64,000 nucleotides of DNA from Flavobacteriaceae bacterium (GTDB taxonomy: Bacteria > Bacteroidota > Bacteroidia > Flavobacteriales > Flavobacteriaceae), in the NCBI GenBank assembly GCA_013373385.1, contig JABXHX010000021.1:9499-73498 (forward strand), read 5' to 3'. Within the stretch, counting starts at the first letter, position 1, and every line of letters begins with the position of its first letter. A program made the translations under genes and the position numbers. Below are positions 904 through 46,846 of this stretch, piece by piece. The notes under the pieces were generated by a model. The model made no database searches. It worked only from the letters and a program-made list of their open reading frames with translations, and was not told where the DNA came from.

Positions 904-922
904 TTCACAAAATACATATTTT

Positions 923-952
923 AAAAAGCAACTCTGTAGAGTTGCTTTTTTT
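923..952 (+). terminator. Intrinsic terminator after lpdA
   Basis: AAAAAGCAACTC-TGTA-GAGTTGCTTTTT hairpin followed by a T tract. Confidence 0.8.
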
Positions 953-980
953 GTTTGTTGAGTTTACTTATTTTTACCCA

Positions 981-2192: not shown

Positions 2193-2193
2193 A

Positions 2194-3282: not shown

Positions 3283-3284
3283 TG

Positions 3285-5096
3285 TTATAAGATTTTAGCT
3301 TTAATTTTTTTCCAGAACTTCTTTAATAGAAAACCTGATATTATTGCAGATATAGTAGTTGAAATTGCCAAAGTTACTTCTCCGTAAATCCAATAACCTG
3401 TGGCAAACATACAGCTGTAAATTAACACACAACCTAGCAGCATAGCAATAACTCCTGCAGGCACACTCCATCCTTCATTAACATCAACAATAGTTATATT
3501 TTCTGCCTTAGCTTGATTTACAATCTTAGTCCATCCAGGCCCTCCTGGTTGCGTTCTTTTATAAAATGCTTGCAGTACTTCTTTTGTTTCTGGTTGAGTG
3601 ATAAAGGTAACTATTAGCCAAACTGTTGTTGTAATAAATACCACCATAGGGAATTTTGCCCAACTTGGCATTATTGCTTCTGCTCCAAATAAATAATCTC
3701 CTATCGATTTTGAAGCAAAGAGCAATGAAACTACACCAGAGACAATCATTGCATAAATTTCGCTCCAAGCATTTATTCTCCACCAAAACCAACGTAAAAT
3801 AAAAATCAACCCTGTACCTGCACCAAACATAATAATGATATCGAATAGTTGTTTTGCATTTTGAAGATACAAGGCAAACAATGCACTTAAAATCATTAAT
3901 ACTACAGTAGATATTCTTCCTACGCGTACTAGTTCTTTTTCTGAAGCATCTTTGTTAACCTGCTGCTTATAAAAGTCATTTACAATATAAGATGAACCCC
4001 AATTTAAATGGGTAGAAATGGTACTCATATAAGCTGCTACTAAAGAAGCCAACACCAAACCTAATAAACCGCTTGGTAATTTAGTTAACATTGCAGAATA
4101 GGCTAAATCGTGGCCAAGTTTATCTTGTGTTACATTTGGAAATGCTTCTTGTATGCTTGCAATATCTGGAAAAACAACCAATGATGCCAAGGCTACAATA
4201 ATCCATGGCCAAGGACGTAATGCATAATGCATGATATTAAAAAAGAACGTAGCACCTATTGCATGGTTTTCGTTTTTTGCTGCTAGCATACGTTGTGCTA
4301 TATAACCACCTCCTCCTGGTTCTGCTCCTGGATACCAAGAGCTCCACCATTGTACCGCTAACGGAATTATTAATAATGTTATCAATGCTTCTGTATTGCT
4401 AAAATCTGGTAAAATTGATAACTTACTCGCCACATTTTCATTACTAAACAAAGCGTCTAATCCGCCAACTTCTGGTAAGTTCACCAAATAATATGCGGCT
4501 CCAATAGCACCAGCCATTGCTGTAAAAAATAAAATAAAATCTGTATAAACCACTCCTTTAAAACCTCCTACAGCACTAAAAGCAACCGTTACTGTACCCG
4601 CATACACAATGGTTTCCCAAGGTTGCAAGCCTAGCATTATACTTCCTATTTTAATAGCAGCTAAGGTTACACCTGCCATTGCAAAAACATTAAACAACAA
4701 ACCTAAATACAAAGCTCTAAAACTTCTTAAAAACCTAGCTGGTTTACCGCCATAACGCAATTCGTAAAATTCAATATCTGTATTTACAGCAGATTTTCGC
4801 CATAATTTTGCATACACAAAAACAGTTAGCAGGCCTGTAATTAAAAATGCCCACCACATCCAGTTAGCAGAGACACCATCTTTTCTAACAATATCTGTTA
4901 CAAAGTTTGGCGTATCTGTAGAAAAGGTAGTAGCTACCATAGAAATACCTAGTAACCACCAGGGCATATTTCTACCAGATAAAAAATATTCAGATGAATT
5001 TTTACCTGATTTTTTAGATACATAAAGACCTATAAATAATGTAATTGCAAAAAAGGAAAAGATTAAAACGTAATCTAGTGTGCTTAATGATACCAT
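3285..5096 (-). CDS. Sodium:solute symporter family protein (probable sugar/GlcNAc transporter)
   Basis: EYFLSGRNMPWW, ATTFSTDTP, QRMLAAKNE and AAYMST motifs; many transmembrane segments. Confidence 0.9.
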   Translation of the reverse strand: MVSLSTLDYVLIFSFFAITLFIGLYVSKKSGKNSSEYFLSGRNMPWWLLGISMVATTFSTDTPNFVTDIVRKDGVSANWMWWAFLITGLLTVFVYAKLWRKSAVNTDIEFYELRYGGKPARFLRSFRALYLGLLFNVFAMAGVTLAAIKIGSIMLGLQPWETIVYAGTVTVAFSAVGGFKGVVYTDFILFFTAMAGAIGAAYYLVNLPEVGGLDALFSNENVASKLSILPDFSNTEALITLLIIPLAVQWWSSWYPGAEPGGGGYIAQRMLAAKNENHAIGATFFFNIMHYALRPWPWIIVALASLVVFPDIASIQEAFPNVTQDKLGHDLAYSAMLTKLPSGLLGLVLASLVAAYMSTISTHLNWGSSYIVNDFYKQQVNKDASEKELVRVGRISTVVLMILSALFALYLQNAKQLFDIIIMFGAGTGLIFILRWFWWRINAWSEIYAMIVSGVVSLLFASKSIGDYLFGAEAIMPSWAKFPMVVFITTTVWLIVTFITQPETKEVLQAFYKRTQPGGPGWTKIVNQAKAENITIVDVNEGWSVPAGVIAMLLGCVLIYSCMFATGYWIYGEVTLAISTTISAIISGFLLKKFWKKIKAKIL

Positions 5097-5206
5097 GTAT
5101 ATATATTTTACGAGTGTAAAGTAGTGAATCTAATATTATTTATTGAAGTTTTTCTACTGACAACACAAAAAAAAGGCTGAACTTACTTAAATGTAATACA
5201 AACAGA

Positions 5207-5917
5207 TTATTCGTTTACGTTTAAGATTATCTGCTTTGCCTGATTGATGTATTTTCTTCCAATAGGGATTCTTTTAAGGTTAATATCTACCGAATTGCCT
5301 TCTATACTTTTTACTTTATCTAAAGAGATGGTAAAAGACCTATGTATTCTTAAAAATCTCTTCCCAGGCAGCTCTTCTGTTATACTTGTTAGAGATTTGT
5401 GTACTAAATAGCTATCTGTTGTTGTAAAAATTTTAATATAGTCTTTTAAACTTTCTATATATAAAATTTCATCAAAAAGTATTTTAACTAATTTTTTATC
5501 AACCTTCAAAAATATATACGAATCTTTATTTTCTTTTTCTTGCTGTATACCTCTTTGTACTGCTATTTTTTGGGTTGTTTTATTTATCGCTTTTAAAAAC
5601 CTATTAAAAGATATTGGCTTTACCAAATAATCTATCACATCTAAATCATAACTTTCTACAGCGTATTCTCTGTAGGCTGTAGTGATAATAATATTGAACT
5701 TTAAAGCTAGGCTTTTTACAAATTCTAATCCATTCATTTTAGGCATATTAATATCTAAAAAAATAATATCAATTTTTTCACTTTCTAGGAGTTGAATAGC
5801 TGTAATAGGGTTGTTAAAAGTTGCAACAACGGTTATATTATCAAATTCTTGTAAATGATTTTCTATAACTTTGATAGCCAAAGGCTCGTCATCTATAATG
5901 ATACATTTTATGTCCAT
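5207..5917 (-). CDS. LytTR/AlgR family response regulator
   Basis: REC domain (IIDDEP, FLDINMP, TTAY, LVKP) plus LytTR domain (FLRIHRSF, IPIGRKY). Confidence 0.95.
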   Translation of the reverse strand: MDIKCIIIDDEPLAIKVIENHLQEFDNITVVATFNNPITAIQLLESEKIDIIFLDINMPKMNGLEFVKSLALKFNIIITTAYREYAVESYDLDVIDYLVKPISFNRFLKAINKTTQKIAVQRGIQQEKENKDSYIFLKVDKKLVKILFDEILYIESLKDYIKIFTTTDSYLVHKSLTSITEELPGKRFLRIHRSFTISLDKVKSIEGNSVDINLKRIPIGRKYINQAKQIILNVNE

Positions 5918-7199: not shown

Positions 7200-10100
7200 A
7201 TGAAAAAAATAAAAATACTTTTATTTATTACCTTTTCATTGTTGCTAACTACAAACTCAATAGCACAAGAAAAAAGTATCTCAGGTACTGTTACCTCTAA
7301 ATCAGATGGTAGCGCATTACCCGGTGTAAGTATAGTTGTACAAAACACACAAAGAGGTACAGAAACAGACTTTGACGGAAAATACAACATCAAAGCTTCT
7401 GTAGGGCAAGTTCTTACATTTTCTTATATCGGTATGAAAACAGTAAACATTACTGTTACTACAACATCATCTACAATTAATGTACAGTTAGAAGATGCTG
7501 ACAATGTATTAGATGAAGTAGTAGTTACTGCACTTGGTATTAGTAGAGAAAAGAAATCATTAGGGTACTCTGTTTCAGATTTAAAAGGATCATCAGTATC
7601 TCTAGCTAAAGAAAACAATGTTGTAAATTCTCTTTCTGGAAAAGTAGCCGGAGTAGTAATTACTCAATCTGCTTCTGGTCCAGCTGGTGGGACAAGAGTT
7701 GTAATTAGAGGGAACAATTCTATTACTGGAAATAACCAACCTTTATATGTAGTAGACGGTGTGCCAATTGACAACTCAGGAAACGGTAGTGCTAATGGTA
7801 GCAATACTTCTGAATACAGCAGATTTGATTTAGGTACTGGTATTTCTGATATCAATCCAGACGATATTGAAACAATTTCTATCTTAAAAGGACCTAATGC
7901 AGCAGCATTATACGGATCTAGAGCAAGTAACGGTGTTATTCTTATTACCACAAAAAAAGGAGCTTTAGGAAAAGGACTAGGTGTTTCTTTTACTTCTAGT
8001 TTCTCTGCTCAAAATCCTTTACTACTACCAGAATATCAGAATCAATATGGTCGTGGAGTTAACGGGAATTTCCCAGCTGACTTAAATCAGTTAAAAAGTG
8101 CTGGTTCTTGGGGGCCTAAGTTTGATGGTTCTCAACAATTATATTATGACGGAACGCAAAAAACATACGCTGCACAATCTAATAATGTAAAAGACTTCTT
8201 TAGAACGGGTACTAGTATTATAAATACAGTAGCACTGAGCAGAAGCACAGAAGCTTCTTCGTTACGTTTTTCTTATTCTAATTCTGATATTAAAAGTATT
8301 TTACCTAACTCTACCGTAGATAGAAATAACTTTAACCTTAGAGCATCTTCTAAGTTAACAGATAAATTTTCTATTGATGCTAAAGTAACTTACTTTTTAC
8401 AAGGAGCAAAAAATCGTGCTTCACAAGGTACAGAAGGTATCATGGCATATTTATACGGATTGGCAAGAAACGTAAATATCAACGATTTAAAAAACTACCA
8501 AGATCTATCTAAAGGATATAATGTAATTGCTCCAACAGCAAGTGGAGGAAACCCTTACTGGATTCTATTCCAAGATAAAAATGAAGACAACAGAAAAAGG
8601 TTTACTGGTTTTGCTAAAGCCCAATACGATTTTAATAATAAATGGAAAGCTTTTGTAAGAGTAGGTACAGATGCAGTAGATTTAAAAACTGAAGGATACA
8701 ACGCTGTTGGACATCACTTTAACCCAAAAGGAACAATAAACTACTCTAACTACAACACTTCAGAAACAAACTACGATTTCTTAGTTATGTTTAATGATAA
8801 TTTAAATGAAGATTTTAATTTATCTGCAAATTTTGGTGGTAATGCATTACATGCTACCTCTCAATTTTCTTCAATCTCTGGAGCAGATTTTAAAATTCCA
8901 GGGAAATATTTTATTGCAAACACAGACTCAGAAAAGTTAAGAGTTAATCAAACTGAATTGGTAGAGAAAAAAGTTCACTCTTTATACGGATCTGCTTCTT
9001 TAGCATATAAAGGCATGGTGTATGTTGATATTACAGGAAGAAACGATTGGTCTTCTGCATTAGCAGCAGAAAACAGATCATATTTTTACTCTTCTGCAAG
9101 TGTAAGTTTGTTATTAAATAAAGTATTTGATATTAACTCAGAAAAGATCAACTTTTCTAAATTACGTTTAAGTTACGCTAATGTTGGTAACGATACAGAT
9201 CCACATCAAATTGTAAATCTTTACAATGTTGCGGGCAATGGTTATTTAGGTAACACAACTGTATCTAGCCCAAATATTAAATTTAGCAACAGTTTAAAGC
9301 CAGAAAGCGTAACCTCTACGGAAGTAGGTTTTGAAGTTAAAGCATTAGAAAACAGATTGTTTGCTGACTTTACTTACTACACTATTACTTCTAAAGATTT
9401 AATCTTTGACGTTCCTGTTGACCCAGCAACTGGATTTAGCCACTTTAGAGAAAATATTGGAGAAATTAGCAATAAAGGTTTTGAATTTATGATTGGTGGT
9501 ACACCTATAAAAACTGAAGGCTTTAGATGGGATATTTCAGCTAATATTTCTGGAAACAAGAACAAATTAAACAGCTTGATTAAAGGGCAAGACTTTTTCC
9601 AATTTACCTCAAGTAATAGTGGGGTAATTGACGTAAGAGCACAAGTTGGAGAAGGTTTTGGTGATATTTATGGAACAGATTGGAAAAGAGCTCCATCTGG
9701 AGAATTATTATTAACCGCTACAGGTAGACCACAAGCTACTTCTGATAGAGTTAAATTAGGAAACTACCAACCAGATTTCACAGGTGGTGTTACAAACACA
9801 GTAAACTACAAAGACTTTACTTTAAACTTTTTGGTTGACTATAGAATCGGAGGGCAAGTGTATTCTGGTACAGATGCTGCTTTAGATGCATCGGGTGTAT
9901 CTACTAGATCTTTAAAATATAGAGAAGGTGGTGTAACATTAAATGGTGTTTGGGATGACAATGGTACCTTAAAACCAAACACTACAAATATTACTGCTGA
10001 GCAATATTGGAGTTCTGTATCTGGCATAGCTTCAGAATACGTATATGACCAAACTAATGTGCGTTTAAGAGAAGTAAGTTTATCATACAAAATACCTGCC

Positions 10101-35739: not shown

Positions 35740-36723
35740 CTAAAGAATACCTCTATTAACCATTTCCCAGTATGATTTTCCCTGAGGTGTTAATTCACAT
35801 CCTTTTTCATATATAGCTGCCCAATACATGTCTTTTTTCCCTTCGGGCAATTCTTTCTTTATAGGGATAACGAGGTTAACACGATTGTAAAGTTTAAGGA
35901 TAGTAAATTTTTCAACATTCTTAGTAATTGCTGTTTTTTCAGTATGCTCAAATGTCCTATTTAATTTAAACTTATAATCTGGGTGTTTAAATAGTATTGT
36001 AATTTGCCTAAGCTCATCTGGAATAATTTGAGATTTAATTTTTCTAAGTGAAATATATCTTCTAACGTTAGTTATAAAAATAGGACGTTGCGCTTTTTCT
36101 CCCATAGCCTTATCAATATATCCATAAACATTACCAGGAGTTATTTCTCCTATAATACTTGCAGCACCACCTTCAAGAGCATGACAAAATAGTTTAGTAA
36201 AGATTCCTTCGCCATCAATTTCTGTAGAATATTGATTAGCTGCTGAGGCAGCAAGAATAGTTACTCCTTCTTTAATTCTTACTAAATCACTACTAATAAA
36301 ATCTTTTGCAAAACTTCCTGAATGACAACAATCAAAAATTATAATCTTATTCCGAGCAGGTGAATTATTAACCTCTTGTAAAATGTCATTCATTGATAAA
36401 CCATGATATCCTTTTTCATTTTCAGTGGTTACTAAATACCCCTGTCCTTTTCGAATAGCTCCATGTCCAGCAAAATAAAATAAAGAAGTTTCTCTTTCAT
36501 CTCTAAATAATTCTTCAATCTTTTTCCTTAAAAAGTCTGTCGTAATAATATTCTTTTCTCCTGAAATTATTGTTTCTGTGTGAAAGTTTTTTTCTTTTCC
36601 ATTAATTCCTTCATTATAAGATAATACTTTTTCAATCTTATTAGCATCATTAATGCATCCAAATAATGATGTTTTGTGGTCATAGTGATTGATTCCTACA
36701 ATTAAAGCTTTTCTCCCACCCAT
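35740..36723 (-). CDS. Caspase-like protease (peptidase C14), type IV Thoeris-like effector
   Basis: RKALIVGINHY, L.GCINDA, FYFAGHG (His) and FDCCHSG (Cys) dyad, GIFTKLFCHALEGGAA; extra C-terminal domain of about 90 aa. Confidence 0.92.
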   Translation of the reverse strand: MGGRKALIVGINHYDHKTSLFGCINDANKIEKVLSYNEGINGKEKNFHTETIISGEKNIITTDFLRKKIEELFRDERETSLFYFAGHGAIRKGQGYLVTTENEKGYHGLSMNDILQEVNNSPARNKIIIFDCCHSGSFAKDFISSDLVRIKEGVTILAASAANQYSTEIDGEGIFTKLFCHALEGGAASIIGEITPGNVYGYIDKAMGEKAQRPIFITNVRRYISLRKIKSQIIPDELRQITILFKHPDYKFKLNRTFEHTEKTAITKNVEKFTILKLYNRVNLVIPIKKELPEGKKDMYWAAIYEKGCELTPQGKSYWEMVNRGIL

Positions 36724-36725
36724 TA

Positions 36726-37127
36726 TTATACTACTTTTTTTATTGCTTCAACTATTGATTTTCCTTGCCATTTAACAATTTCATCGGCATTGTTTTTAAC
36801 TAGTATAGATGTTTTTTCAGCACCCCAAGGTTCAATTGCTATTATAGGTTTCCCTTGCTCAATAGCTATATTTATTTCTTTTTGTATCCACTTACTATAG
36901 TTAGCATATACACCTGCTAAAATTAGAATGCAATGTGTTCCTTTTATTTTATTTTCAATAGCAACTTTAAGTTGTTTGTCTGTTCCATTTGTATGTACTG
37001 GATCATTTTTAGGAACAGAATAGTCATAAAATAATAAGTTTTGGTCTTTTAATAATTTGGTAATTTTATCGTAGGCATCTCCATAAGCCCATGAATGACT
37101 GATAAACAATCGATATATCTTTGGCAT
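36726..37127 (-). CDS. TIR-domain protein, Thoeris ThsB/MTH538-like
   Basis: RLFISHSW, DYSVP, SKWIQKEI (catalytic Glu), GKPIIAI, ADEIVKW. Confidence 0.9.
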   Translation of the reverse strand: MPKIYRLFISHSWAYGDAYDKITKLLKDQNLLFYDYSVPKNDPVHTNGTDKQLKVAIENKIKGTHCILILAGVYANYSKWIQKEINIAIEQGKPIIAIEPWGAEKTSILVKNNADEIVKWQGKSIVEAIKKVV

Positions 37128-37140
37128 AATATTTTTGTTA

Positions 37141-37707
37141 TTAGTGAATTGTAGGGCTTTGACCTCTTAACCAATCACTCAATTGAACATATTTATTTAC
37201 ACTTTCATTAATCCAAAGAACTTTTTTATGCGGTATCATTTTAGTTCCTTCTTTAGTTATGTATGGGTATACTGACAAAAATTCTTGTCCTTTAAAACTT
37301 GACGATTCATAATCAGTAATAGGAAGGATTGAGCATCTACTCTCTTTACCATCAACAAAACCCAATTCCCAAGGCATCCATTTTGAATTGGAAGCATTTT
37401 CAGAAGTGGCATAGACAAGAGACTTTGATTGCCTCATTCTATTCCTTATATGATCTACGGTTCTTTTGGTTACACTACTTCTACTAAGATGTGGATCTAT
37501 AATCCAATCCACGTAAACTGTAAATCCTAAATCTGATAATTCTAAAAACAACCCTTCGATAAATTGTTTATCTTTATAGCTATGTGATAAAAAAATATCA
37601 AATTGAGTCAATTTTTTACTTTCATTTAGTACACTACTAAATGTTCTTTTTCCCTTTAATCCACTACTTGATAGATTTCTTAGATAATCCTTTGTATAAA
37701 ATCCCAT
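37141..37707 (-). CDS. TIR-domain protein (second, TIR_2-like)
   Basis: FDIFLSHSYKD, VYVDW, SKWMPWELG (catalytic Glu), ILPI. Confidence 0.88.
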   Translation of the reverse strand: MGFYTKDYLRNLSSSGLKGKRTFSSVLNESKKLTQFDIFLSHSYKDKQFIEGLFLELSDLGFTVYVDWIIDPHLSRSSVTKRTVDHIRNRMRQSKSLVYATSENASNSKWMPWELGFVDGKESRCSILPITDYESSSFKGQEFLSVYPYITKEGTKMIPHKKVLWINESVNKYVQLSDWLRGQSPTIH

Positions 37708-37710
37708 TTT

Positions 37711-38517
37711 TTATTTATTGTTTATTAATTCTTTAATATTTACTCTCCTTGCTATCAATTTTGATTGACTATTACCAGATAACATACCTCTTGCATTTTT
37801 GTTTGAAGGAGAAGGAGCTTCAAAAACCTTTTTTTCAAATTCTATTAAGTCTATAAAAACTGTCACATTATCCGACCAATCATGTATCAGAACATTTCCG
37901 CTAGATTTAGACACCCTTAGACTAGAACTAGCTGAAATATTTACTGAACGAGATTTGATACCTGTAAGATCAGTTTTTAATAAAATTTCTGATGATTTTG
38001 ATTTTGATTGAGCCATGAAGGCTTTTTTTGCTACTGTAACAGAGGTGACAAGATATGTGTCATCCCAAACCAATTGCTTTCCTTTAGAGTTAATCTCTTT
38101 TTCTAAAAAAAGAAGATCATCCAATTCGCGTTTATCACAATCAATAGCTAAAAGAAATATAGCTCCTTCAGAAAAAAATTGGATATGTAAATCTTTTTCA
38201 ACCTTAGGAAGTGATTTTTTTCCAAGATTAGCACCGCCTTTCAGTCCAAATTGAATATTAACTTCATCCTTACTTGAAAACCTATATGTGTCAGGTGTTC
38301 CTGAAAATTCTGGTATATTAAAATCCACTCCTAACTTTTCAAGAGAGGTTATCTTTTTAAAACTTCCATATGGAAGTTTCTTACCAAAAAGAGGTCTTCT
38401 GGCATTGGGAAATTTAATAATATCTCCAACTTCAATTTTTTCGCCCGGTAGGTATACTGCTATTTTACCTAGCTCTTCAGCAATTTTTTTAGAATATTGT
38501 ATTTGTAAATCTGACAT
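37711..38517 (-). CDS. Gasdermin-like pore-forming protein (putative)
   Basis: 268 aa from MSDLQ. AVYLPGEKIEVGDII, F..ITSL..LGVDF, YLVTSVTVAKK and VTVFIDLIEF echo gasdermin strand motifs, with Ser/Gly-rich amphipathic stretches and a short C-terminal tail. First gene of an operon with a caspase. Confidence 0.65.
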   Translation of the reverse strand: MSDLQIQYSKKIAEELGKIAVYLPGEKIEVGDIIKFPNARRPLFGKKLPYGSFKKITSLEKLGVDFNIPEFSGTPDTYRFSSKDEVNIQFGLKGGANLGKKSLPKVEKDLHIQFFSEGAIFLLAIDCDKRELDDLLFLEKEINSKGKQLVWDDTYLVTSVTVAKKAFMAQSKSKSSEILLKTDLTGIKSRSVNISASSSLRVSKSSGNVLIHDWSDNVTVFIDLIEFEKKVFEAPSPSNKNARGMLSGNSQSKLIARRVNIKELINNK

Positions 38518-38619
38518 AATAGAATCATTTTGATAAAACAAAATTGAATCTATTTATACTTTTATACTTCGTATTATATGATGATTTTTATGTAATCTAA
38601 TATGGGTAGTTATCTCTAA

Positions 38620-39252
38620 TTAAATCTGTATGTAACCGCTCTTTATAGCAAATTTTGTTAATTCAATAGAGTTTCTAACTCCAGTCTTGGCAATAAGGTT
38701 TCTTCTATGGGTGTTAACTGTAGCCTCAGAAACATACAATTTTTCAGCAATAATAGAAGCTTTATCACCGTTGGCTATAAGTTTTAAAACTTCTATTTCC
38801 TTTTTGGTAAGTTCAATTTCTCCTATAACATTTTTTGATCTCATACTATTCATAACAGTATTTTTAACATCTTCTCCAAAATACCCTTTATTATCATTCA
38901 GTGTGTTAATAGCAGTAATCAATTCTTCTTTTCCTTTGTTTTTTAGAATATACCCATTTACTCCAGCCTCCATCATTTTACGAATAAAACCTATTTCATC
39001 ATGCATCGTTAAAATAAGCACCTTCGTCTTTGGGAATTTTTCTTTTATAATCTTTGTTAAGTCTAGACCATCAATTTCTGGCATTTCAATATCAAGTACT
39101 GCAATATCTACTTCATTTTTTTCAAGTAATGAAAGAGCTTCTAGTCCATTTTCAGCAGTACCTACAATACAAATATTATCATTTTCGGTAACAAGAGAAG
39201 TTAATCCTTCAATGATTATTTTATGGTCGTCAGCAATTATAATTTTAGTCAT
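38620..39252 (-). CDS. NarL/LuxR family response regulator
   Basis: IIADDH, VLDIEMP, LTMH, YILK; LTKKEIEVLKLIANG...TVNTHRRNL helix-turn-helix. Confidence 0.95.
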   Translation of the reverse strand: MTKIIIADDHKIIIEGLTSLVTENDNICIVGTAENGLEALSLLEKNEVDIAVLDIEMPEIDGLDLTKIIKEKFPKTKVLILTMHDEIGFIRKMMEAGVNGYILKNKGKEELITAINTLNDNKGYFGEDVKNTVMNSMRSKNVIGEIELTKKEIEVLKLIANGDKASIIAEKLYVSEATVNTHRRNLIAKTGVRNSIELTKFAIKSGYIQI

Positions 39253-39263
39253 TGTTATATATT

Positions 39264-41357
39264 TTAAGATAAAGGGATATCAATTGAAATCATAGTCCCA
39301 ATATTAATTGTTGAGTCGATTAAAAAATTTCCGTTAAGAGCATCAACCCTTGATTTTACATTTATAATTCCAATACCAGTGTCCTCTTCCTTTGATAAAT
39401 TAAATCCGACACCATCATCTTCAATAATAATATTGAGTATTCCCTTGTCTTTAATTAACTGTATCGTAATCTCTTTTGCTTTAGCATGTTTAAGCACATT
39501 ACTAACTAGCTCTTGTACAATACGATACACGCCTAACTCTATATCATTACCAAGTCTATTATCAACCCCATAAGTAATTAAGACAACAGATATTTGCTTA
39601 CTTTTTTCTAAAGTATCTTTAAGGTTTTCAAGAGCAGTAACTAAACCAAACTTTGTAAGAAGTCCAGACCCTAGATCATGAGAAATCTTTCGAACCTCAC
39701 TACAAGCATCATCAAGTAATTCATTTGCTTTTTGATATTGTGTTATATTTTCTTTCTTAAGATTTTCAACACTTTCTTCGACGGATTTAAAGTACATTTT
39801 TACTGTTGATAAAATACTTCCTATTCGATCATGTAAATCCTCTGAAATCCTCTTTCTCTCTTTTTCTTGTAAATCAAGCATATTATTAATCGCATTAATT
39901 TCTTGGCTTTTTAAAAAACTATCTATCTCTTGTTGTTTAATTTTTATTTGATTATCTCTAAGTTTAATTTTTTCTTTTTGAGACCTATTCCTTAAAGCTA
40001 AATAAGACAAAATCATAACTAATAATAATCCTATAGCTAGACTAATAATAACTGTTTTTTTTCGTTGATTATCTGCTTTGAATTTTTCAAGGTTTATTTT
40101 AGTAATCTCTTGAGTATTTTTAATTTCTTTATATCTAGCATTTGTCTGTACGGCCTCTTTATATTGCTTTTCTATTTTGTTTTTAAGAATGATATACTTA
40201 TTACTATAATTTAACGCTGTTTTGTATTCTTTTAACGAAGTATGGCAGAGAGATAAGTCATTAAGTATTTTTAACTGACTTATTACATATCCTGATTTTT
40301 TTGATATCTCAAGAGCTTTATTATAGAACTTAACTGATTGCAAATAATTAGATTTTAAATAATAAATATCTGCCATATTCATAGTTGTCGATAAGGTAGT
40401 TTGAATATTTGCTTTAACTAGATTACTCTTTTGGTAATATAAAAGAGCTAAGTCTAGATTTCCTTTTTGATGGTATAATGCCCCTATATTATTTAAAATT
40501 CGAGTATCTTTACTTTCTATCCCTAGCTCTTTTTTTAACTTTTGAGCTTTCTCGTAATAAAAAAGAGACCTATTAAATTTTTCCAGTTCATAAAAACATA
40601 TTCCAAAATTATTATAAACTTTCACTAATTCATATTTGTCATTATAGGTTAAAAAAATCCTTTCACTTTCATTAAGGTGCTCAATACTTTTATTATAGTC
40701 TTCAAGCTTAATATATAATGTTGAAAGACCTAACAATGTAAATGCTAATCCTTTATTATTTTTTAACTGCTTTCTGATATCAAGACTTAAATGATAACTT
40801 TTAGCAGATAATTCATAGAGTCCAAGTTCAGAATAAATAAATCCTAAGTTGCTTGAGACTAAAGCAACTATATTTTCTTTTTTTAATTCTTTAAAATTCT
40901 TAAATGACTTTTTAGTATAGTCTAAGGCTAAATTCAAATTGCCAATATTTTTATATATCTCTCCTAGCTGATTTTGTGCTCTACCAATTCCATATTGATT
41001 ATTAATTCTTTTTTCCCTTTCTAAAACCTCTAAATAAATTTTCTCAGACTTTTTAAATTCTTTTTGATAAATATAAATAGCTCCTAATCTATTTAAGCCT
41101 GTTGTTTTTCCCTTATAAAAAGAAAGAGAATCACTTATTTTTATTGCTCTAGAAGCATACTCAATTGCTAATGAAAAATTTGTTTTATTATATTCCCATG
41201 CTAAATCATTAAGAATATTTACAGTAGAAGTATCAATTATTTTTTCTTTTCTTAATTTATCTTCAAGATTATTAATAGTAGAAATGTTTTGCCCATAGCA
41301 ACTACTAATGGCTATTAACAACCTAGTTAAAAACAAAAAAAGATAATGTTTTTTCAT
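39264..41357 (-). CDS. TPR-repeat sensor histidine kinase (HisKA_3 type)
   Basis: Signal-like N-terminus, many TPR repeats, one TM helix, ERKRISEDLHD, QELVSNVLKHA, DDGVGF, GIGI. Confidence 0.92.
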   Translation of the reverse strand: MKKHYLFLFLTRLLIAISSCYGQNISTINNLEDKLRKEKIIDTSTVNILNDLAWEYNKTNFSLAIEYASRAIKISDSLSFYKGKTTGLNRLGAIYIYQKEFKKSEKIYLEVLEREKRINNQYGIGRAQNQLGEIYKNIGNLNLALDYTKKSFKNFKELKKENIVALVSSNLGFIYSELGLYELSAKSYHLSLDIRKQLKNNKGLAFTLLGLSTLYIKLEDYNKSIEHLNESERIFLTYNDKYELVKVYNNFGICFYELEKFNRSLFYYEKAQKLKKELGIESKDTRILNNIGALYHQKGNLDLALLYYQKSNLVKANIQTTLSTTMNMADIYYLKSNYLQSVKFYNKALEISKKSGYVISQLKILNDLSLCHTSLKEYKTALNYSNKYIILKNKIEKQYKEAVQTNARYKEIKNTQEITKINLEKFKADNQRKKTVIISLAIGLLLVMILSYLALRNRSQKEKIKLRDNQIKIKQQEIDSFLKSQEINAINNMLDLQEKERKRISEDLHDRIGSILSTVKMYFKSVEESVENLKKENITQYQKANELLDDACSEVRKISHDLGSGLLTKFGLVTALENLKDTLEKSKQISVVLITYGVDNRLGNDIELGVYRIVQELVSNVLKHAKAKEITIQLIKDKGILNIIIEDDGVGFNLSKEEDTGIGIINVKSRVDALNGNFLIDSTINIGTMISIDIPLS

Positions 41358-41424
41358 AACAAAAAGAAAAGGCTTTACCTTTTAAAAATAGTAAAGCCAT
41401 TTAAGATAAGCAATTAAAATTTAA

Positions 41425-41586
41425 TTAATCTTCATCATCCTCTTCTCCAGGGCGAATGATTTCTCCTCCAGAGCTAGGAACTGTATTTGGTTTTTCTTTT
41501 GGTTTTTCTTCTGGAGTATCTTGATTTTCTTCTACATCCATAAACATTCTTTCTTTTTCAAACTGTTCATTGTAATTGTTATTCAT
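41425..41586 (-). CDS. Small acidic peptide, 53 aa, absent from the ORF track
   Basis: Hand translation: MNNNYNEQFEKERMFMDVEENQDTPEEKPKEKPNTVPSSGGEIIRPGEEDDED. A TAnnTTTG element lies 25 nt upstream. Confidence 0.6.
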   Translation of the reverse strand: MNNNYNEQFEKERMFMDVEENQDTPEEKPKEKPNTVPSSGGEIIRPGEEDDED

Positions 41587-41725: not shown

Positions 41726-41733
41726 TAGTTTTG
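41726..41733 (+). promoter_or_regulatory. Bacteroidota -7 element for the cupin/radical SAM operon
   Basis: TAGTTTTG matches TAnnTTTG, 46 nt before the cupin ATG. Confidence 0.4.
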
Positions 41734-41779: not shown

Positions 41780-42160
41780 ATGAAATTATCATACTTTAAA
41801 GATCTTAAATGGATATCTTCTCCAGAACTAAACTGTTTTATTGGAGTTGAATCAAACTTACCTTCTAATGATAATGCAGATATTGTCTATGCAAAAATAG
41901 AAGGAAAACAAAAGTTAAAAAAGCATTTTCATATTAGACCAACAGATTCTGGTTACGAAAGTTTTTTCTTTTTTAATGGGGCCAACATTAAAGTTCATTT
42001 AAAAGAAAAAACAAACCATATCAAATCTTCATTGCCCTTTCATCTAACATTCTTTACAAAAGAAGAGCATGGTATTGAAAACTTGTCCGATAAAGAATTA
42101 GTTTTCGAAGTTTTATGCGCTCCTAAACATCAAGAAGGTGAAGAAATACTTACTGAATAA
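41780..42160 (+). CDS. Cupin-domain protein
   Basis: HFH...YE (motif 1) and FFTKEEHGIEN (motif 2) metal-binding pattern. Confidence 0.75.
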   Translation: MKLSYFKDLKWISSPELNCFIGVESNLPSNDNADIVYAKIEGKQKLKKHFHIRPTDSGYESFFFFNGANIKVHLKEKTNHIKSSLPFHLTFFTKEEHGIENLSDKELVFEVLCAPKHQEGEEILTE

Positions 42161-42168
42161 GCCTAAAA

Positions 42169-43044
42169 ATGAATAAAATTTATACCATAGACTGGAGAAT
42201 AACTGGGCTTTGCAATGAAAGATGTCCTTTTTGTTATGGTCCAGAAAAACATATTCATCCACCAATAGATATAATTAATAAAATAACTAGCGCCATCTGT
42301 AATAGTAACTTTAATGTTGTTCGATTTTCTGGAGGAGAGCCTCTTTTGATTTCTAATCTAAGCGAAGTCATTAAAAGACTTAATACTAAAAAAATAAAAG
42401 TTGTTTTATCTACTAATGGTTTTTCTTACTTAAAAAAGAAAAATGATTTTGAACCAAATATTAGCAAATTAAACCTTTCATTAGATGGGTACGATCAGAA
42501 AAGTCATAGTATAAATGGAAGAAGTAAAAAATCTTTTACAGACATTATTAATATTCTTGAATATTATAATTCTTTTTCAAAAAATCTTTTTTCAATAAAA
42601 ATAGGAACAATCATCACATCAAAAAATATATCAGTCAAATTTCTTTTAAAGATGTACTATTTTTTAAAACAGTACTCAATAATTGATAGGTGGAAGATTT
42701 ATCAATATGTCCCTGAAGGTCCCATCATAGATATGAACTTATCGGTTAATGATGATTCTTTTAATGAATTAGAATCCACTTTTTTTAAAGCCATTAAACC
42801 TTCTAGTGATAGAAATGATTTTACAATAAAGTTTAGCTCTATACTTCAAAGAACCCAAGCTTATCTCATAATTCAACCGTATGGAAAAGTTTTTATCCCA
42901 ATCCATAATGGTAATTATACTAAAGAAGTTTATCTCGGAAATATTTTGGAAGATAATATAACTACTATAATTAATAATTGGTTTAAAAAAGGAGGAGATA
43001 GAAAAAAACACCTAAACAATAATAGCATTTTAAATAATGAATAA
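42169..43044 (+). CDS. Radical SAM protein, viperin-like
   Basis: CNERCPFC (CxxxCxxC), FSGGEPLL, STNG, LSLDG, KIGTII..N, RWKIYQ, AYLIIQPYGKV; no SPASM cysteines. Confidence 0.88.
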   Translation: MNKIYTIDWRITGLCNERCPFCYGPEKHIHPPIDIINKITSAICNSNFNVVRFSGGEPLLISNLSEVIKRLNTKKIKVVLSTNGFSYLKKKNDFEPNISKLNLSLDGYDQKSHSINGRSKKSFTDIINILEYYNSFSKNLFSIKIGTIITSKNISVKFLLKMYYFLKQYSIIDRWKIYQYVPEGPIIDMNLSVNDDSFNELESTFFKAIKPSSDRNDFTIKFSSILQRTQAYLIIQPYGKVFIPIHNGNYTKEVYLGNILEDNITTIINNWFKKGGDRKKHLNNNSILNNE

Positions 43045-44032
43045 AATAATACTTGATAAAATAGATAAGAAAATTCTATTTGAAATAGATAGAAACCCAA
43101 CGATTACAATCGAAAGTTTAGCAAAAAAAACTAGCTCAACTATCGAAAATGTTTCTTTTAAAATTTCTAAACTCTTTAAAACAGGAATAATTAAGTATTC
43201 TATGCCTATAGTTAATCTAGATAAATTAGGGTTCAGTATTTTTCTTTTTCATATTAAAATAAGTGATATTAATAAATCAAAAATCATTATTGATGTTTTT
43301 ATAACCAATGAACATATTGCTTGGCTAGTTAAAACCTCTAAAAAAAATGTTTTATTGGGAGCATTATTTGCTAAAAGTGCTAATCAATGCAACGAAATTC
43401 TAATTTCAATAACACAATCTACCAACAACAATATCAAAGAAATCCAGACATCTTTAGTGTATGAAAAATATGTTCTTGGTCAACGATATTTAATAATTGA
43501 TGATAAAATAACAGATTTTATGTTTGATAATTCAAGAATAGCCTATGACGGAGTTGAAAGGGATTTTCTTACTGTAACTGAAAGAAACATACTGTTTAAT
43601 ATAAGAGAATTAAAATCAAATTCTTTAAATAATATAACTGAACACACAAACTATAATTTAACTCAGATTAATCAATTAATAAGAGATTTAAAACGTAGAG
43701 ATATAATTACAAAATTTCAACCTGTTTTTGACGTAAAGAAAATGAATTATAAATGGTTTTTAATTTCATTAAAAACAGTCTGGTTAACAAAAGAAATTAA
43801 AAACAAATTTATTCAATATCTCCATTCTATTACTAAAATTGTTCACATAAACTGTATGCTTGGCACCTGGGATATTAATTTTGAAATTCATGTTAAAAAC
43901 AAAAAAGAGACAGAAGATATTTTAACTGTTATAGAAGAAAAGTTTCCAAATTTAATAAGTCAAAAAGATGTACAAGAAATATTGGAAGAGTATAAATTCA
44001 ATTTTTTAATTGACTGTGTTTTAAAATCTTAA
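43037..44032 (+). CDS. Tandem Lrp/AsnC-type regulator (two wHTH + RAM repeats)
   Basis: LDKIDKKIL...KL.KTGII...VNLDKLG and LTVTERNIL...L.RRDII..F.PVFDVKKM...MLGTWD repeats. Confidence 0.78.
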   Translation: MNKIILDKIDKKILFEIDRNPTITIESLAKKTSSTIENVSFKISKLFKTGIIKYSMPIVNLDKLGFSIFLFHIKISDINKSKIIIDVFITNEHIAWLVKTSKKNVLLGALFAKSANQCNEILISITQSTNNNIKEIQTSLVYEKYVLGQRYLIIDDKITDFMFDNSRIAYDGVERDFLTVTERNILFNIRELKSNSLNNITEHTNYNLTQINQLIRDLKRRDIITKFQPVFDVKKMNYKWFLISLKTVWLTKEIKNKFIQYLHSITKIVHINCMLGTWDINFEIHVKNKKETEDILTVIEEKFPNLISQKDVQEILEEYKFNFLIDCVLKS

Positions 44033-44034
44033 TT

Positions 44035-44478
44035 ATGAATCTCTTAATTCATTCTAGCTTAGACCACAAAGATAAATTACTTGACTGTGCCAATAAATTT
44101 AAAAACATTGGTTTATCAATCATATTCCCAGAATTAAAAAGATTTCAACATATTAGGGACAAACAGAATAATCAATTATTATTCAACAAAATAAAAAACA
44201 AATTATCTATTGAAAATATAAAAAATGTAGAAAAATGTGATTATCTACTTATCGTAAATCCTAATCATAGAGGTATCGAAAATTATATCGGAGGGAATTC
44301 CTTTTTAGAAATGGTTGTTGCTTTTTATTTAAAAAAACCTATTTTCTTGACTAATCCGATACCTGAAAATTTACCATACACAGAAGAGATAAAATCTTTC
44401 TTTCCTTTAGTAATTTGTTTGAAAAATATAACTAAAAAATCATGGGAAAATTATGTCAAAACCGCGTATATTCGTTAG
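44035..44478 (+). CDS. Nucleoside 2-deoxyribosyltransferase (NDT)-like Rossmannoid protein
   Basis: IKNVEKCDYLLIVN, YIGGNSFLEM (conserved Glu helix) and AFYLKKPIFL resemble NDT/nucleotide N-glycosidase folds. Confidence 0.55.
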   Translation: MNLLIHSSLDHKDKLLDCANKFKNIGLSIIFPELKRFQHIRDKQNNQLLFNKIKNKLSIENIKNVEKCDYLLIVNPNHRGIENYIGGNSFLEMVVAFYLKKPIFLTNPIPENLPYTEEIKSFFPLVICLKNITKKSWENYVKTAYIR

Positions 44479-45391
44479 TTCAACATATTATGACTTAAAG
44501 TTTATAAGAGGTACTTTAGAAACCTTTATAAATGAGTATGGCTTTGAACCAGTTCTTTTTGAAAAAGGGCATGTAACCTACAATAATGATTTTTCAATAG
44601 AATATTCTTCCTACAAAGAAGTCACAAAATCTGATATATTGATATTTGTTATTGGTGGTTCTTATGGAACAAAAGCAAATAAAAAAAATGAAATAGATTT
44701 CAACACATATAATTCTATTTCAAAAGAAGAGTATAAGGTCGCATTAGAAAACAATATCCCTACTTATACTTTTATTCTCGCAGAGATAGTAAATGAATAT
44801 GAAATTTTTAAACTTAATAGGAATAAAGATATTACATATTCAACTACAAAAACAATTGAAATTTTTAAGCTTCTAGACTTTATTTATGGTTTAAATGAAA
44901 ACAATGTTGTAACTCCTTTTAATAGTATTTATGATATTTTAAATTTTTTAAAAGTGCAATGGGCTGGATTATTTCATGAGTTTTTAATAAATAAAAAAGA
45001 GCAATTAAATATAAACAATATAAAGAATGCTATTAATGAATTAAAAGATATTGCATCTCGGTTAGAAAAATATAATGAAAAGATAATTCTACAAATAGAT
45101 GCCAAATCAGCCAAGGAATTACTTCAAGAAAAACAAGAACTATTACAAAGAAAAGAATTAGAAAAATCTTTTAATCAATTTTGCGATACAACTTTTGGTA
45201 AGTTTATACTTAAATATTTTGACTTTGACAACGACCAACAATGGGTTGACATGATAATAAAAAGTGAAAATCTTATCTCTTTTTTGAAAGCTTGTAAGGT
45301 ACCTCAAAAACAAATCAGCTATATAGTACAAAATGATTCTTCTGAAAATGAATTTTTAAATGTCAAAAAAATAATAGAAGGATTTATTTAG
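44453..45391 (+). CDS. DUF4062 domain protein (TIR/NDT-like fold) with a C-terminal coiled coil
   Basis: RIFVSSTYYDL..IR, EV.KSDILIFVIGGSYG, SISKEEY..A; predicted coiled coil around INNIKNAINELKDIASRLEK. Confidence 0.85.
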   Translation: MSKPRIFVSSTYYDLKFIRGTLETFINEYGFEPVLFEKGHVTYNNDFSIEYSSYKEVTKSDILIFVIGGSYGTKANKKNEIDFNTYNSISKEEYKVALENNIPTYTFILAEIVNEYEIFKLNRNKDITYSTTKTIEIFKLLDFIYGLNENNVVTPFNSIYDILNFLKVQWAGLFHEFLINKKEQLNINNIKNAINELKDIASRLEKYNEKIILQIDAKSAKELLQEKQELLQRKELEKSFNQFCDTTFGKFILKYFDFDNDQQWVDMIIKSENLISFLKACKVPQKQISYIVQNDSSENEFLNVKKIIEGFI

Positions 45392-45474
45392 TAGATAATA
45401 TCTTTTAAATATTTAATTATAAAATGTAGTAAAGTACTTAGAATTATAGGTCCTTTCTATGTCATTTTGAAGAT

Positions 45475-45501
45475 AAAACCGTAGAATTTATCTACGGTTT
45501 T
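45475..45501. terminator. Hairpin between convergent genes (probable bidirectional terminator)
   Basis: AAAACCGTAGA-ATTTA-TCTACGGTTTT, a perfect 11-bp stem. Confidence 0.6.
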
Positions 45502-45525
45502 GTTACTTTGCTAAATATTTTTATG

Positions 45526-46008
45526 CTATTTACTTGAAATAATACTACCATTTAAAGAAATAATATCCCCACGAGATGATTTTAAATCACTCCCTTTCTT
45601 ACGCAGTAAACGTTGTGTATTAAACAGTGAACGACATTTAATGTTGAACTCTGTATAATTCACAGCATCTTCTTTACTTTTCAATGATGCTACATAAGCC
45701 TCATAGAGTTTAGCATTGCTCAGTTGGTTACCTTTTACTTTCAGAATGATATCAAGTGCAATTGAAGCAATAGCGTTCAATCCTTGTTGTGTTGAGAAGT
45801 TAAAACCAAGGTCTTTAATCTTTTTCTGTTGTTGGTCATCAGCATACTTCAGTAATACAGAAATATCCTTATGATAAGCTCTTAAGCGTTCAGCAATAAC
45901 ACGTTTTTCTTCTTTTGCCTTTTCAATCTGTTCTTCTGATTGTTTAAGTAGCTCTTGATCTGTTTTGATGTTTTCAATTAATACATCAACAATACTTGCA
46001 TTGTTCAT
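45526..46008 (-). CDS. Hypothetical protein with an N-terminal coiled coil
   Basis: 160-aa ORF with a heptad-rich N-terminal half. Confidence 0.75.
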   Translation of the reverse strand: MNNASIVDVLIENIKTDQELLKQSEEQIEKAKEEKRVIAERLRAYHKDISVLLKYADDQQQKKIKDLGFNFSTQQGLNAIASIALDIILKVKGNQLSNAKLYEAYVASLKSKEDAVNYTEFNIKCRSLFNTQRLLRKKGSDLKSSRGDIISLNGSIISSK

Positions 46009-46038
46009 AATTTTAAGTTTTATATTAATATTTAGTTT

Positions 46039-46635
46039 TTAGGTAATCTTCCACAGTGAGTGAATGACAAAATTTGATGCGCTTTGTTTAGATTCTATAC
46101 AAATACGTTCTAGCTCCTGCTCTGCTTCTTGTTTAGTGTCAAAGAAAAATGATGGTTGTGTTGTTACTGCATACTTATCCTCATCTGTTACATCAGAGGT
46201 AAATATGGCAAAGACTCGTTTAGTTTTTCCATGTTTAAACAATATAGAATAATAGTTACTTACATCATACTCATCCCACTGCTCAACGGGTTTATCTCTC
46301 AAATAATGAGGGTCAATTTGTATCTCATCAAAGAAATAATGTACTTCTTCTTGACCTAGTTTAGGCACGGCACTGATATTACTTTTCCACTTCTCAATGG
46401 TATAGGAAAGGACACAAGCATCATCACCAATTAATTCAAGCAACTCTACTTCTGTCTTTTCAGCTAACATACTGTTATCATAATCAGTGTAGAGCCATAG
46501 AACGATATCAACCAATTCTTTTCTTGAAAACAGTTGTAGAAATACAGAATTGATTTCTGTCACTTTTCTATTTTCAAGTTGTTGCTTTAACATTTCTAAA
46601 AAGTAAAGCAGCAATTTTCGTTCTCTAATTGTCAT
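46039..46635 (-). CDS. Hypothetical acidic protein
   Basis: Likely start MTIRE at 46635, overlapping the end of the upstream gene. Confidence 0.7.
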   Translation of the reverse strand: MTIRERKLLLYFLEMLKQQLENRKVTEINSVFLQLFSRKELVDIVLWLYTDYDNSMLAEKTEVELLELIGDDACVLSYTIEKWKSNISAVPKLGQEEVHYFFDEIQIDPHYLRDKPVEQWDEYDVSNYYSILFKHGKTKRVFAIFTSDVTDEDKYAVTTQPSFFFDTKQEAEQELERICIESKQSASNFVIHSLWKIT

Positions 46636-46846
46636 GACTATCGTCTTTAGCTTCACAGTGGTTGCTAATGGTTGCTAATAGGTGATTATAATCACCACTT
46701 TTTGCTTCAGCAATCACGGTGTCAATCTCTTTGTTAGTCCAGCCTTCTTTTTTGGCTTGCCATTTGAATATGCCCATAATCATAAAGGCATTTCCATCTA
46801 CGCCAACCAAGTTTAGGTTGACGGTTTTGTCAATTACTTTTTTCAT
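46625..46846 (-). CDS. Small hypothetical protein of a type seen on mobile elements
   Basis: LVGVDGNAF.IMG...A..EGW...EI..V..EAKSGDY.HLLAT; sits in an operon with the methylase. Confidence 0.7.
   Translation of the reverse strand: MKKVIDKTVNLNLVGVDGNAFMIMGIFKWQAKKEGWTNKEIDTVIAEAKSGDYNHLLATISNHCEAKDDSHDN

Follow-up and report, generated by a model that had tools for sequence, protein, structure and literature searches.

What is the role of five tightly packed genes, A to E, which encode a small cupin, a viperin-like radical-SAM (S-adenosylmethionine) enzyme, a tandem Lrp/AsnC-type protein, a protein with the fold of the nucleoside 2'-deoxyribosyltransferases (NDTs) and a DUF4062 protein? These genes lie in a stretch of 64,000 nucleotides from contig JABXHX010000021.1 of a Flavobacteriaceae bacterium (assembly GCA_013373385.1), called here the window, and the original prediction, made from the sequence by itself, had seen in them a nucleotide-modifying system for either defence or biosynthesis. 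Defence fits both the folds (viperin-like, NDT, TIR-like) and the defence islands in which such genes occur; the biosynthetic half of that prediction is disfavoured. We tentatively propose that they form a single cassette, belonging to a modular anti-phage system that is rare and spreads by horizontal transfer and is composed of an enzyme core, a switch built on RAM domains and a swappable suicide effector. The proposal starts from the gene order, folds, sequence motifs, co-conservation, fusions and defence-island contexts that were observed in the loci described below.

Gene order, fusions and genomic contexts

Genomic contexts were compared over a few dozen loci (L numbers; single proteins bear P numbers), many of which come from short metagenomic contigs. 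B has few close relatives. The whole island is present in L001/L002 at 70-85% identity. Conservation of the five-gene neighbourhood had been set beforehand as a check, and the order A-B-C-D-E was found to recur, besides the near-identical L001 island, in L007 (B 57% identical) and in L003/L004, where it stands in a different neighbourhood (identity 55% for A, 44% for B, 41% for C, 46% for D and 25% for E). The five-gene order is kept in three diverged lineages with unrelated flanks and, as the whole gene order is conserved in diverged relatives, the operon is more than a chance assembly. Relatives of D of at least 45% identity all share their locus with a B-type radical-SAM gene and, except in L009, lie directly 3' of the B-C block.

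Shorter combinations were also found: Cupin_5-B-D in L006, a TIR-NACHT gene followed by A-B-D in L008, and B-A, a TIR-NACHT gene and, further on, D in L009. The TIR-NACHT-FGE_sulfatase proteins of ~890 amino acids (aa) which adjoin the B/A/D cassettes of these last two loci (L008:570-3263, L009:3298-5940) are 38% identical to each other, the B proteins beside them being 35-41% identical to that of the window, and constitute a recurrent association with an NLR-like protein.

In L014, L017, L020, L025, L026 and L108, B and C form single polypeptides (noted B~C), C being fused C-terminally to B. A profile search of 1.84 billion representatives returned ~58 clusters above 220 bits, ~26 of which (about 45%) are B~C fusions, and fused and unfused forms of B interleave on a tree of the B domain (a quick FastTree), so that fusion or fission has taken place repeatedly. 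Judging from these sequences, C is a fusion (Rosetta-stone) partner of B in many relatives and would be more than a mere regulator.

Additional domains and genes surround the fused forms. L017 and L025 have the order A, B~C (643-647 aa), a single-pass membrane protein and D. This membrane protein of 151-154 aa, located between B~C and D (L017:5574-6029, L025:3380-3844), has one N-terminal transmembrane helix and its gene overlaps D; the proteins of the two loci, which have no detectable mutual sequence similarity, are possible membrane effectors. L014/L023, L020/L024 and L026 contain an EACC1 or EACC1-like gene, a caspase~B~C fusion (885-902 aa) and D; the N-terminal caspase domain was found on B~C in P0261, P0270 and L014, and was recognised in L020 and L026 from its resemblance to that of L014. 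An N-terminal TIR domain precedes B~C in P0258, P0267 and L108 (TIR~B~C of 793 aa, then D). Taken over these architectures, B and D are the invariant core, C and E are modular and A is a frequent partner, while the variable slot is filled by known immune-effector domains, namely DUF4062, TIR and caspase with EACC1.

EACC1-caspase pairs are known as two-gene conflict systems (Kaur et al. 2020, PMC7159879), and EACC1 is a protease-activated pore-former whose protease bears variable sensor fusions (Evans et al. 2025, 10.1101/2025.11.14.688446). L014/L023, L020/L024 and L026 belong to these systems, with B~C as the variable C-terminal region and D behind it, whereas the window has neither EACC1 nor a fused caspase and carries DUF4062 in the effector slot. 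The C-terminal modules named in the accessible parts of the EACC1-caspase papers do not include a radical-SAM/Lrp fusion. Other architectures comprise B~C with a C-terminal class I methyltransferase (P0263, 888 aa), a WD40 propeller region before B~C (P0275, 1403 aa) and B with a weak HD-domain tail (P0291, 480 aa).

Defence genes adjoin the cassettes: DrmA of DISARM (576 bits) in L025, PDC-S37/Hhe (849 bits) in L006, a methyl-directed restriction endonuclease (504 bits) in L003 and ThsB1 (190 bits) in the window, together with ThsB-type TIRs and TIR-NACHT proteins in further independent loci. B was not found in 24 same-genus and 16 same-order genomes, and D was found neither in 400 other genomes of the phylum nor in IMG/VR viral contigs, PLSDB plasmids or INPHARED phages. 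A close D is present in just 4 of 185,579 species genomes, all of them metagenome-assembled genomes (MAGs), from Clostridia, Acutalibacteraceae and Lentimicrobiaceae. The cassette is thus rare, patchy across phyla, mobile and accessory.

Predicted activities of the five proteins

The five family assignments of the original prediction (Table 1) were all borne out: the cupin A by fold (Foldseek) and by its invariant His residues, the viperin-like radical-SAM enzyme B by searches of PADLOC, NCBIfam and PDB in which viperins are closest, the tandem Lrp/AsnC protein C by models and a profile that both recover two winged helix-turn-helix (wHTH) + RAM units, the NDT-like D by its structural model and Foldseek, and the DUF4062 protein E by a score above the Pfam threshold and a retained catalytic Glu-Tyr. 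A, B, D and E each keep their predicted catalytic residues.

Table 1. Positions of the five genes and of the putative signals that flank them in the window
Feature	Position	Strand	Basis
Gene A, single-domain metal cupin, 126 aa	41780-42160	+	Fold search
Gene B, viperin-like radical-SAM enzyme, 291 aa	42169-43044	+	Single CxxxCxxC cluster, without SPASM cysteines
Gene C, tandem Lrp/AsnC-type, two wHTH + RAM units, 331 aa	43037-44032	+	Pfam, NCBIfam, family profile
Gene D, NDT-fold (nucleoside 2'-deoxyribosyltransferase / N-glycosidase-like), 147 aa	44035-44478	+	AF2 model, Foldseek
Gene E, DUF4062 (TIR-like NADase) domain + C-terminal region, 312 aa	44453-45391	+	PF13271
Promoter-like element TAGTTTTG	41726-41733	+	Bacteroidetes -7 consensus TAnnTTTG; pattern match in the 193-nt intergenic region
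Hairpin, perfect 14-bp stem	45472-45504	.	Between the E stop and the convergent gene ending at 45526

Gene B matches Pfam Radical_SAM with 54.6 bits. Its best PADLOC family is pVip PDLC02903 (105.5 bits) and its best NCBIfam family is viperin_w_prok (NF038283), with 92.8 bits, about half of the curated cut-off of 180 bits; the relatives P0005 and P0009 score 87-94 bits on the same model. When a profile of 14 family members was run against PDB sequences, viperin structures came first (66.5-63.8 bits) and MoaA next (59.7 bits); BlsE-type cytosylglucuronate decarboxylase gave weak matches to B. Invariant among the 14 members are C15, C19, C22, G55-G56-E57, G117-R118, K144 and W175-K176. The last three groups align with IGR, KINSV and RWKVFQ of viperin, the Arg of RWK not being conserved, and we take the viperin GR, K and RWK to be basic contacts to the nucleotide phosphates, as in the mouse viperin-CTP structure. 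The B family has [DE]-W-R at the position of viperin N-Y-H, an N-aromatic-H motif just ahead of the cluster cysteines which presumably belongs to the substrate pocket. By neither the threshold nor this motif is B a viperin, although its closest relatives are viperins. A SPASM auxiliary cluster was considered for B and rejected (match of just 13.5 bits, no C-terminal cysteines).

Prokaryotic viperins (pVips), reportedly described by Bernheim and colleagues in 2021, are similar to B as radical-SAM enzymes of ~290 aa with one CxxxCxxC and a GGE motif, with the W-K of B aligned to their RWKVFQ and with a defence-island location. B differs from them by a score of half the curated cut-off, by the D/E-W-R motif, by an obligate NDT-fold partner and a usual cupin, by frequent fusions to tandem Lrp, TIR and caspase domains and by having no kinase partner. 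A larger family of viperin-like radical-SAM proteins (P0014-P0109, ~294 aa) also reaches ~93 bits on the viperin model (cut-off 180); one gene of this type (L103:5001-5885) adjoins a PfkB kinase, and a separate relative (L012:8001-8870) adjoins dNK and PfkB-NUDIX genes. Both are further uncharacterised viperin-like lineages.

For gene D, no sequence-level relative of known function was found in Pfam, NCBIfam or PADLOC, nor among PDB sequences by phmmer or with a 28-sequence profile, and a fold search was needed because identification from sequence had failed. AlphaFold2 (AF2) models were made for A and D. The model of D has a predicted local distance difference test score (pLDDT) of 96.3, and its top 13 Foldseek matches are NDTs and YtoQ at probability 1.0 (NDT, E 3e-5; YtoQ, TM 0.63), followed by the cytidine monophosphate (CMP) N-glycosidases BcmB and MilB and by DNPH1, with TM-scores of 0.5-0.63; one of the MilB matches is a complex with 5-hydroxymethyl-CMP. 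E92, in the motif GGNSFxE, is invariant in 28 sequences and would occupy the position expected of the catalytic nucleophile. D itself does not match Pfam PF05014 (Nuc_deoxyrib_tr), and distant D-like proteins give sub-threshold matches to it in 6 cases out of 10 (14-23 bits against 28.8). D belongs to the NDT superfamily by fold only. It shares with this superfamily (NDT, YtoQ, MilB/BcmB, DNPH1) the fold at probability 1.0, and its conserved Glu in G-G-N-S-F-x-E may correspond to the catalytic one; it is unlike the superfamily in the missing PF05014 match, in TM-scores of 0.5-0.63 and in forming a tight family of its own, tied to radical-SAM genes. With more than 100 clusters at 50-65% identity, this family is much larger than the stand-alone relatives of B taken together.

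D-like proteins of 27-40% identity, from the candidate phyla radiation (CPR), DPANN and other MAGs, have no B-type radical-SAM gene within the 7-kb flanks that were fetched. Such stand-alone proteins (L027-L102) are found widely among Patescibacteria, DPANN archaea and certain Gammaproteobacteria MAGs; it is probably from this parent family that D derives, and the role of its members may be in salvage.

Gene A has no Pfam match, and Cupin_2 profiles match it weakly. The AF2 model (pLDDT 95.6) has 531 PDB fold matches at E<=1e-3, and all 50 matches listed are cupin folds; small monocupins matched with TM ~0.7 are KdgF, the Mn-cupin TM1459, the nucleoside 3'-dehydratase Pac13 (5oo4) and phosphomannose isomerase 7zvy. 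The Pac13 entry is a Streptomyces protein with bound uridine, and Pac13 presumably makes a 3'-deoxy-3',4'-didehydro nucleoside. H49, H51, H97 and N101 are invariant in the A family, whose members adjoin B in L001, L003, L007, L008, L009, L017 and L025. The Cupin_5 protein that takes the place of A in L006 was rejected as an A homologue (hhalign probability 0.1%, homology being undetectable) and is an analogous cupin. In P0273 an N-terminal cupin-like domain is fused to B; it is unmatched by the A profile and sub-threshold for Cupin_2, which makes it a weak hint. A non-orthologous cupin thus replaces A in L006 and perhaps in P0273.

Gene C matches HTH_24 (37.9 bits). HTH_24/HTH_AsnC matches span residues 6-53 and weak sub-threshold HTH matches span 179-226, while the Lrp model covers residues 7-144 and the AhbA model 191-302. 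With the C family profile, the Lrp-type regulator FL11 (PH1519) obtains 56 bits and 4ch7, a tandem NirD-like protein, 43 bits; AsnC_trans_reg is above its cut-off in B~C fused relatives. Both HTH units of the window protein are net-basic (+4 and +3); across the family the net charge of HTH1 goes from +4 (window) to -5 (fused forms), a weakly informative trend, and the recognition helices are not conserved. The NirDL/AhbAB siroheme decarboxylases, found with the radical-SAM proteins NirJ, AhbC and AhbD, are like C in having a tandem or paired Lrp fold of ~330 aa, which serves in them as a non-regulatory small-molecule-binding partner in a radical-SAM pathway. C is unlike them in scoring 36 bits against a family cut-off of 140, in having no tetrapyrrole context and in its higher scores with ordinary Lrp regulators. 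As these regulators outscore the decarboxylases with the family profile, a siroheme-decarboxylase-like enzyme was not retained as the main reading of C.

Gene E reaches 57.5 bits with PF13271 (gathering cut-off 24.7) over residues 5-97, and nothing in Pfam matches its C-terminal region above threshold. F7, E93-Y94 and Q169-W170 are common to four orthologues, whose identity goes down to 25%, in agreement with the motifs given for DUF4062 in three 2026 preprints (a catalytic Glu(-Tyr), an N-terminal aromatic residue and Q/W/E). Two of these preprints show DUF4062 to be a TIR-like NADase which acts in abortive infection through NAD+ hydrolysis or depletion (10.64898/2026.05.01.722283, 10.64898/2026.09.04.749371). 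E is, by its sequence, a member of this DUF4062/NIR family, and has in common with the Swarozyc, Evangelion, Vulcan and Vesta systems the motifs, a C-terminal auxiliary region and a defence-island location. It is unlike them in its translational overlap and in its co-conservation beside a four-gene enzymatic cassette. The start of E overlaps D by 26 nt, and this overlap is kept in all four five-gene loci (window, L001, L003 and L007), even at 25% identity of E. In the metagenome scan, the L001 island was the only source of close relatives of E; over all the loci examined, E is present only where C is a separate gene.

Proposed mechanism and competing explanations

Modular immune systems usually conserve their sensor or transducer and exchange their effector, and on this ground the enzyme core with C would act as sensor and transducer and E as executor. 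B would most likely act on the ribose of a nucleoside phosphate by viperin-type chemistry with a 5'-deoxyadenosyl radical, since its 4Fe-4S and SAM motifs are kept and its basic residues align with the viperin contacts to nucleotide phosphates. The conserved Glu of D would serve to cleave or transfer an N-glycosidic bond, and A would act on the sugar by isomerisation or dehydration. The RAM domains of C would bind a small molecule and change their assembly state, which would suit TIR and caspase domains that are activated by proximity. Within this proposal we lean only slightly towards a direction of signalling in which C would read the product of A, B and D (or the turnover of B on an infection-specific substrate) and would then license the effector, so that E would deplete NAD+ and the infection would abort. 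In the relatives the effector slot would be held by a TIR or caspase domain fused before B~C (the caspase beside EACC1) or by the small membrane protein. The substrate and the product, the ligand of C, its coupling to E, the direction of signalling and the anti-phage phenotype are what we infer from the observations above.

A more specific form of this proposal, which we regard as rather doubtful, places sensing and transduction in the radical-SAM enzyme itself, as the core. Together with D and A, B would turn over only with a nucleotide, or in a condition, that is specific to infection, and the product, or the co-products of turnover methionine and 5'-deoxyadenosine, would be read in cis by the RAM domains, whose ligand-driven assembly would activate the attached effector (DUF4062, TIR, caspase with EACC1, or the membrane protein).

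Several points weigh against one cassette with a RAM switch and a suicide effector. Receptor domains are usually fused to effectors and not to the enzyme that makes the signal. The A-B-D cassettes of L006 and L008, devoid of C and of a fused effector, indicate that the enzymes can stand without the proposed switch, and the window C, with its net-basic HTH units, could simply be a DNA-binding regulator. Viperin-type chemistry would be an extrapolation for B, as the protein scores below the curated threshold and has D/E-W-R instead of N-aromatic-H. The coupling would also suppose a contact between C and E, and E is just 25% identical between the two most distant five-gene loci. E may in fact be autonomous; according to the 2026 preprints, stand-alone DUF4062 proteins of similar size (Swarozyc, Evangelion) work as single-gene systems.

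Since A-B-D cassettes without C exist, a direct antiviral nucleotide made as by pVips is nearly as likely as the cassette proposed here, possible but somewhat doubtful when taken alone. A, B and D would then make a chain-terminating or toxic nucleotide analogue as the antiviral agent, as ddhNTPs (3'-deoxy-3',4'-didehydro nucleoside triphosphates) are for prokaryotic viperins, C would regulate (allosterically when fused, transcriptionally when separate) and the NADase, TIR or caspase would be a second line. Viperins are indeed the closest structural and hidden Markov model (HMM) relatives of B, L006 and L008 offer A-B-D with neither C nor a fused effector, and the distant viperin-like relatives of L012 and L103 lie beside nucleoside kinases, PfkB and NUDIX, as pVips do. 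Pac13, the presumed maker of a 3'-deoxy-3',4'-didehydro nucleoside, is among the folds matched by A, and NDT enzymes exchange bases on such sugars. Characterised pVips, however, are solo or accompanied by kinases and not recurrently fused to TIR or caspase domains, death effectors swapped around a constant core are the signature of a sensor or transducer, and B has 92.8 bits against a cut-off of 180 and is devoid of N-aromatic-H. A degradative use of the same enzymes seems quite improbable to us: D would hydrolyse phage-specific modified (d)NMPs and B with A would convert or destroy them, which would cleanse the pool or detect the phage and starve phages with modified bases. The matches of D to MilB (one with 5-hydroxymethyl-CMP), BcmB and DNPH1 go in this direction, MilB and DNPH1 presumably preferring 5-hydroxymethylated pyrimidine nucleotides, and A, B and D all keep their predicted catalytic residues; but the RAM partner and the fused TIR and caspase would be left without a role, and a radical-SAM step would be costly for the degradation of nucleotides.

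Two unrelated systems side by side, A-D as one unit (a RAM-switched core or a maker of antiviral nucleotides) and E as an autonomous DUF4062 protein of the Swarozyc/Evangelion type that would sense a phage protein through its C-terminal region, we consider improbable. There are documented DUF4062 systems of one gene that have a C-terminal auxiliary region, clustering of defence genes does not require a functional link, and E, missing from most B/D cassettes, diverges much faster than A-D (25% against 41-55% identity). Against a separate E stand the 26-nt D/E overlap, kept in four of four five-gene loci, its close relatives, found only in the L001 island, and its presence, over the loci examined, only where C is separate, relatives filling the slot with a fused TIR or caspase. 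Synthesis of a nucleoside antibiotic or nucleotide salvage, with C as regulator of the pathway, is the least probable explanation. The association of radical-SAM, NDT-like and cupin proteins recalls peptidyl-nucleoside pathways, as do the weak BlsE-type matches and the presence of MilB and Pac13 among the folds; yet no locus contains a transporter, ligase or tailoring gene, the distribution in defence islands is patchy and mobile, and TIR/caspase fusions and EACC1 pairing are found. Mobility, contexts and effector fusions make a biosynthetic or housekeeping role unlikely.

The cassette that we favour also has a likeness to Thoeris and TIR signalling, as TIR-type domains recur around it (fused TIR, DUF4062, ThsB1-type TIR, TIR-NACHT) and, by analogy, a small-molecule-binding domain could read a nucleotide-derived signal. 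Unlike Thoeris, it has no ThsA-like SLOG/SIR2 effector, its conserved core is a radical-SAM enzyme and its production of a signal is putative.

As the original prediction had supposed, no named system that corresponds to the gene set was found in PADLOC or in the searched literature. None of the PADLOC 2.0 models is for A, C, D or E, and its pVip model, the only one that touches B, would probably tag B alone. The searched literature contains no description of a viperin with a cupin, of a viperin-like protein with a deoxyribosyltransferase or of an anti-phage radical-SAM protein with TIR and Lrp. In their accessible parts, neither a viperin-evolution preprint nor the EACC1 and DUF4062 papers mention this architecture; those of the three DUF4062 preprints mention no radical-SAM, cupin or Lrp partners, one of them citing viperins in passing. 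The cassette is therefore, apparently, an undescribed candidate bacterial immune cassette. Viperins are a textbook antiviral enzyme common to bacteria and animals, seen as stand-alone producers of chain terminators, and the cassette would present a sister lineage of viperin-like enzymes hard-wired to an N-glycosidase-fold enzyme, a cupin, a ligand-binding Lrp protein and NAD-depleting or proteolytic suicide effectors. If it is anti-phage, either antiviral nucleotide chemistry would be wider than 3'-deoxy-3',4'-didehydro-NTPs or a radical-SAM enzyme would serve as the sensing or signalling step of abortive infection; it would also give a first biological partner set to the DUF4062 NADase and a non-transcriptional role to Lrp/RAM proteins outside heme biosynthesis. 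With 3.6 kb, obvious catalytic residues and relatives fused in a single polypeptide, handy for biochemistry, the system is tractable.

Layout of the locus and neighbouring genes

According to the list of open reading frames (ORFs) and the window sequence, genes A to E are five plus-strand ORFs with junctions of +8, -8, +2 and -26 nt, which reproduces exactly the coordinates, gaps and overlaps of the original prediction. Its other remarks on the layout held as well: the operon is AT-rich (25.1% GC against 31.6% for the whole window), a promoter-like element stands in front and a hairpin behind. The putative promoter, a consensus match only, lies 47 nt upstream of the ATG of gene A. A scan for sigma-70 promoters ahead of the operon gave scores no better than shuffled sequence, as expected from the host phylum. 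The hairpin region (45465-45515) has a folding free energy of -17.4 kcal/mol (RNAfold); it was overlooked by a simple terminator scan because its stem is poor in G-C pairs, and it is likely a bidirectional terminator.

Two genes of no known family, a Dam-type methylase, RadC, a type IV coupling protein and a large serine recombinase follow downstream; with the coupling protein, the recombinase, the methylase and RadC as neighbours, the cassette is the cargo of a conjugative or integrative element. The two genes of no known family correspond to convergent ORFs of 160 and 205 aa directly past the hairpin (45526-46656, minus strand), which have no Pfam match and did not recur beside the diverged cassettes examined (L003, L006-L009, L014-L026, L108).

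Upstream, a minus-strand block (35740-38541) contains a gasdermin-like gene, two ThsB-type TIR genes and a caspase gene. The operon had been described as back to back with this gasdermin/Thoeris region; the two are divergent and near each other, but a TPR histidine kinase, a LuxR-type response regulator and a 53-aa ORF (38620-41586, minus strand) intervene. One of the TIR proteins (188 aa, ThsB1-type, PADLOC ThsB1 190 bits; 37141-37707, minus strand) has a 48%-identical homologue at L108:5713-6381, one gene 3' of D. This shared TIR in an unrelated locus is a hint of a possible functional link between the window's two divergent operons, and for the same reason the gasdermin / ThsB-TIR / caspase operon might be part of the circuit of the cassette. 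A kinase/regulator pair lies upstream in L003 too (468-5301; HATPase_c_3/HEF_HK of 1003 aa and Response_reg_2 of 612 aa), from families different from those of the TPR histidine kinase and LuxR-type regulator of the window. Finally, the 53-aa ORF (41425-41586, minus strand), which is acidic and located upstream of the TPR histidine kinase gene, has its counterpart in the homologous island L001, where a 53-aa gene is likewise called in this position (7255-7416).

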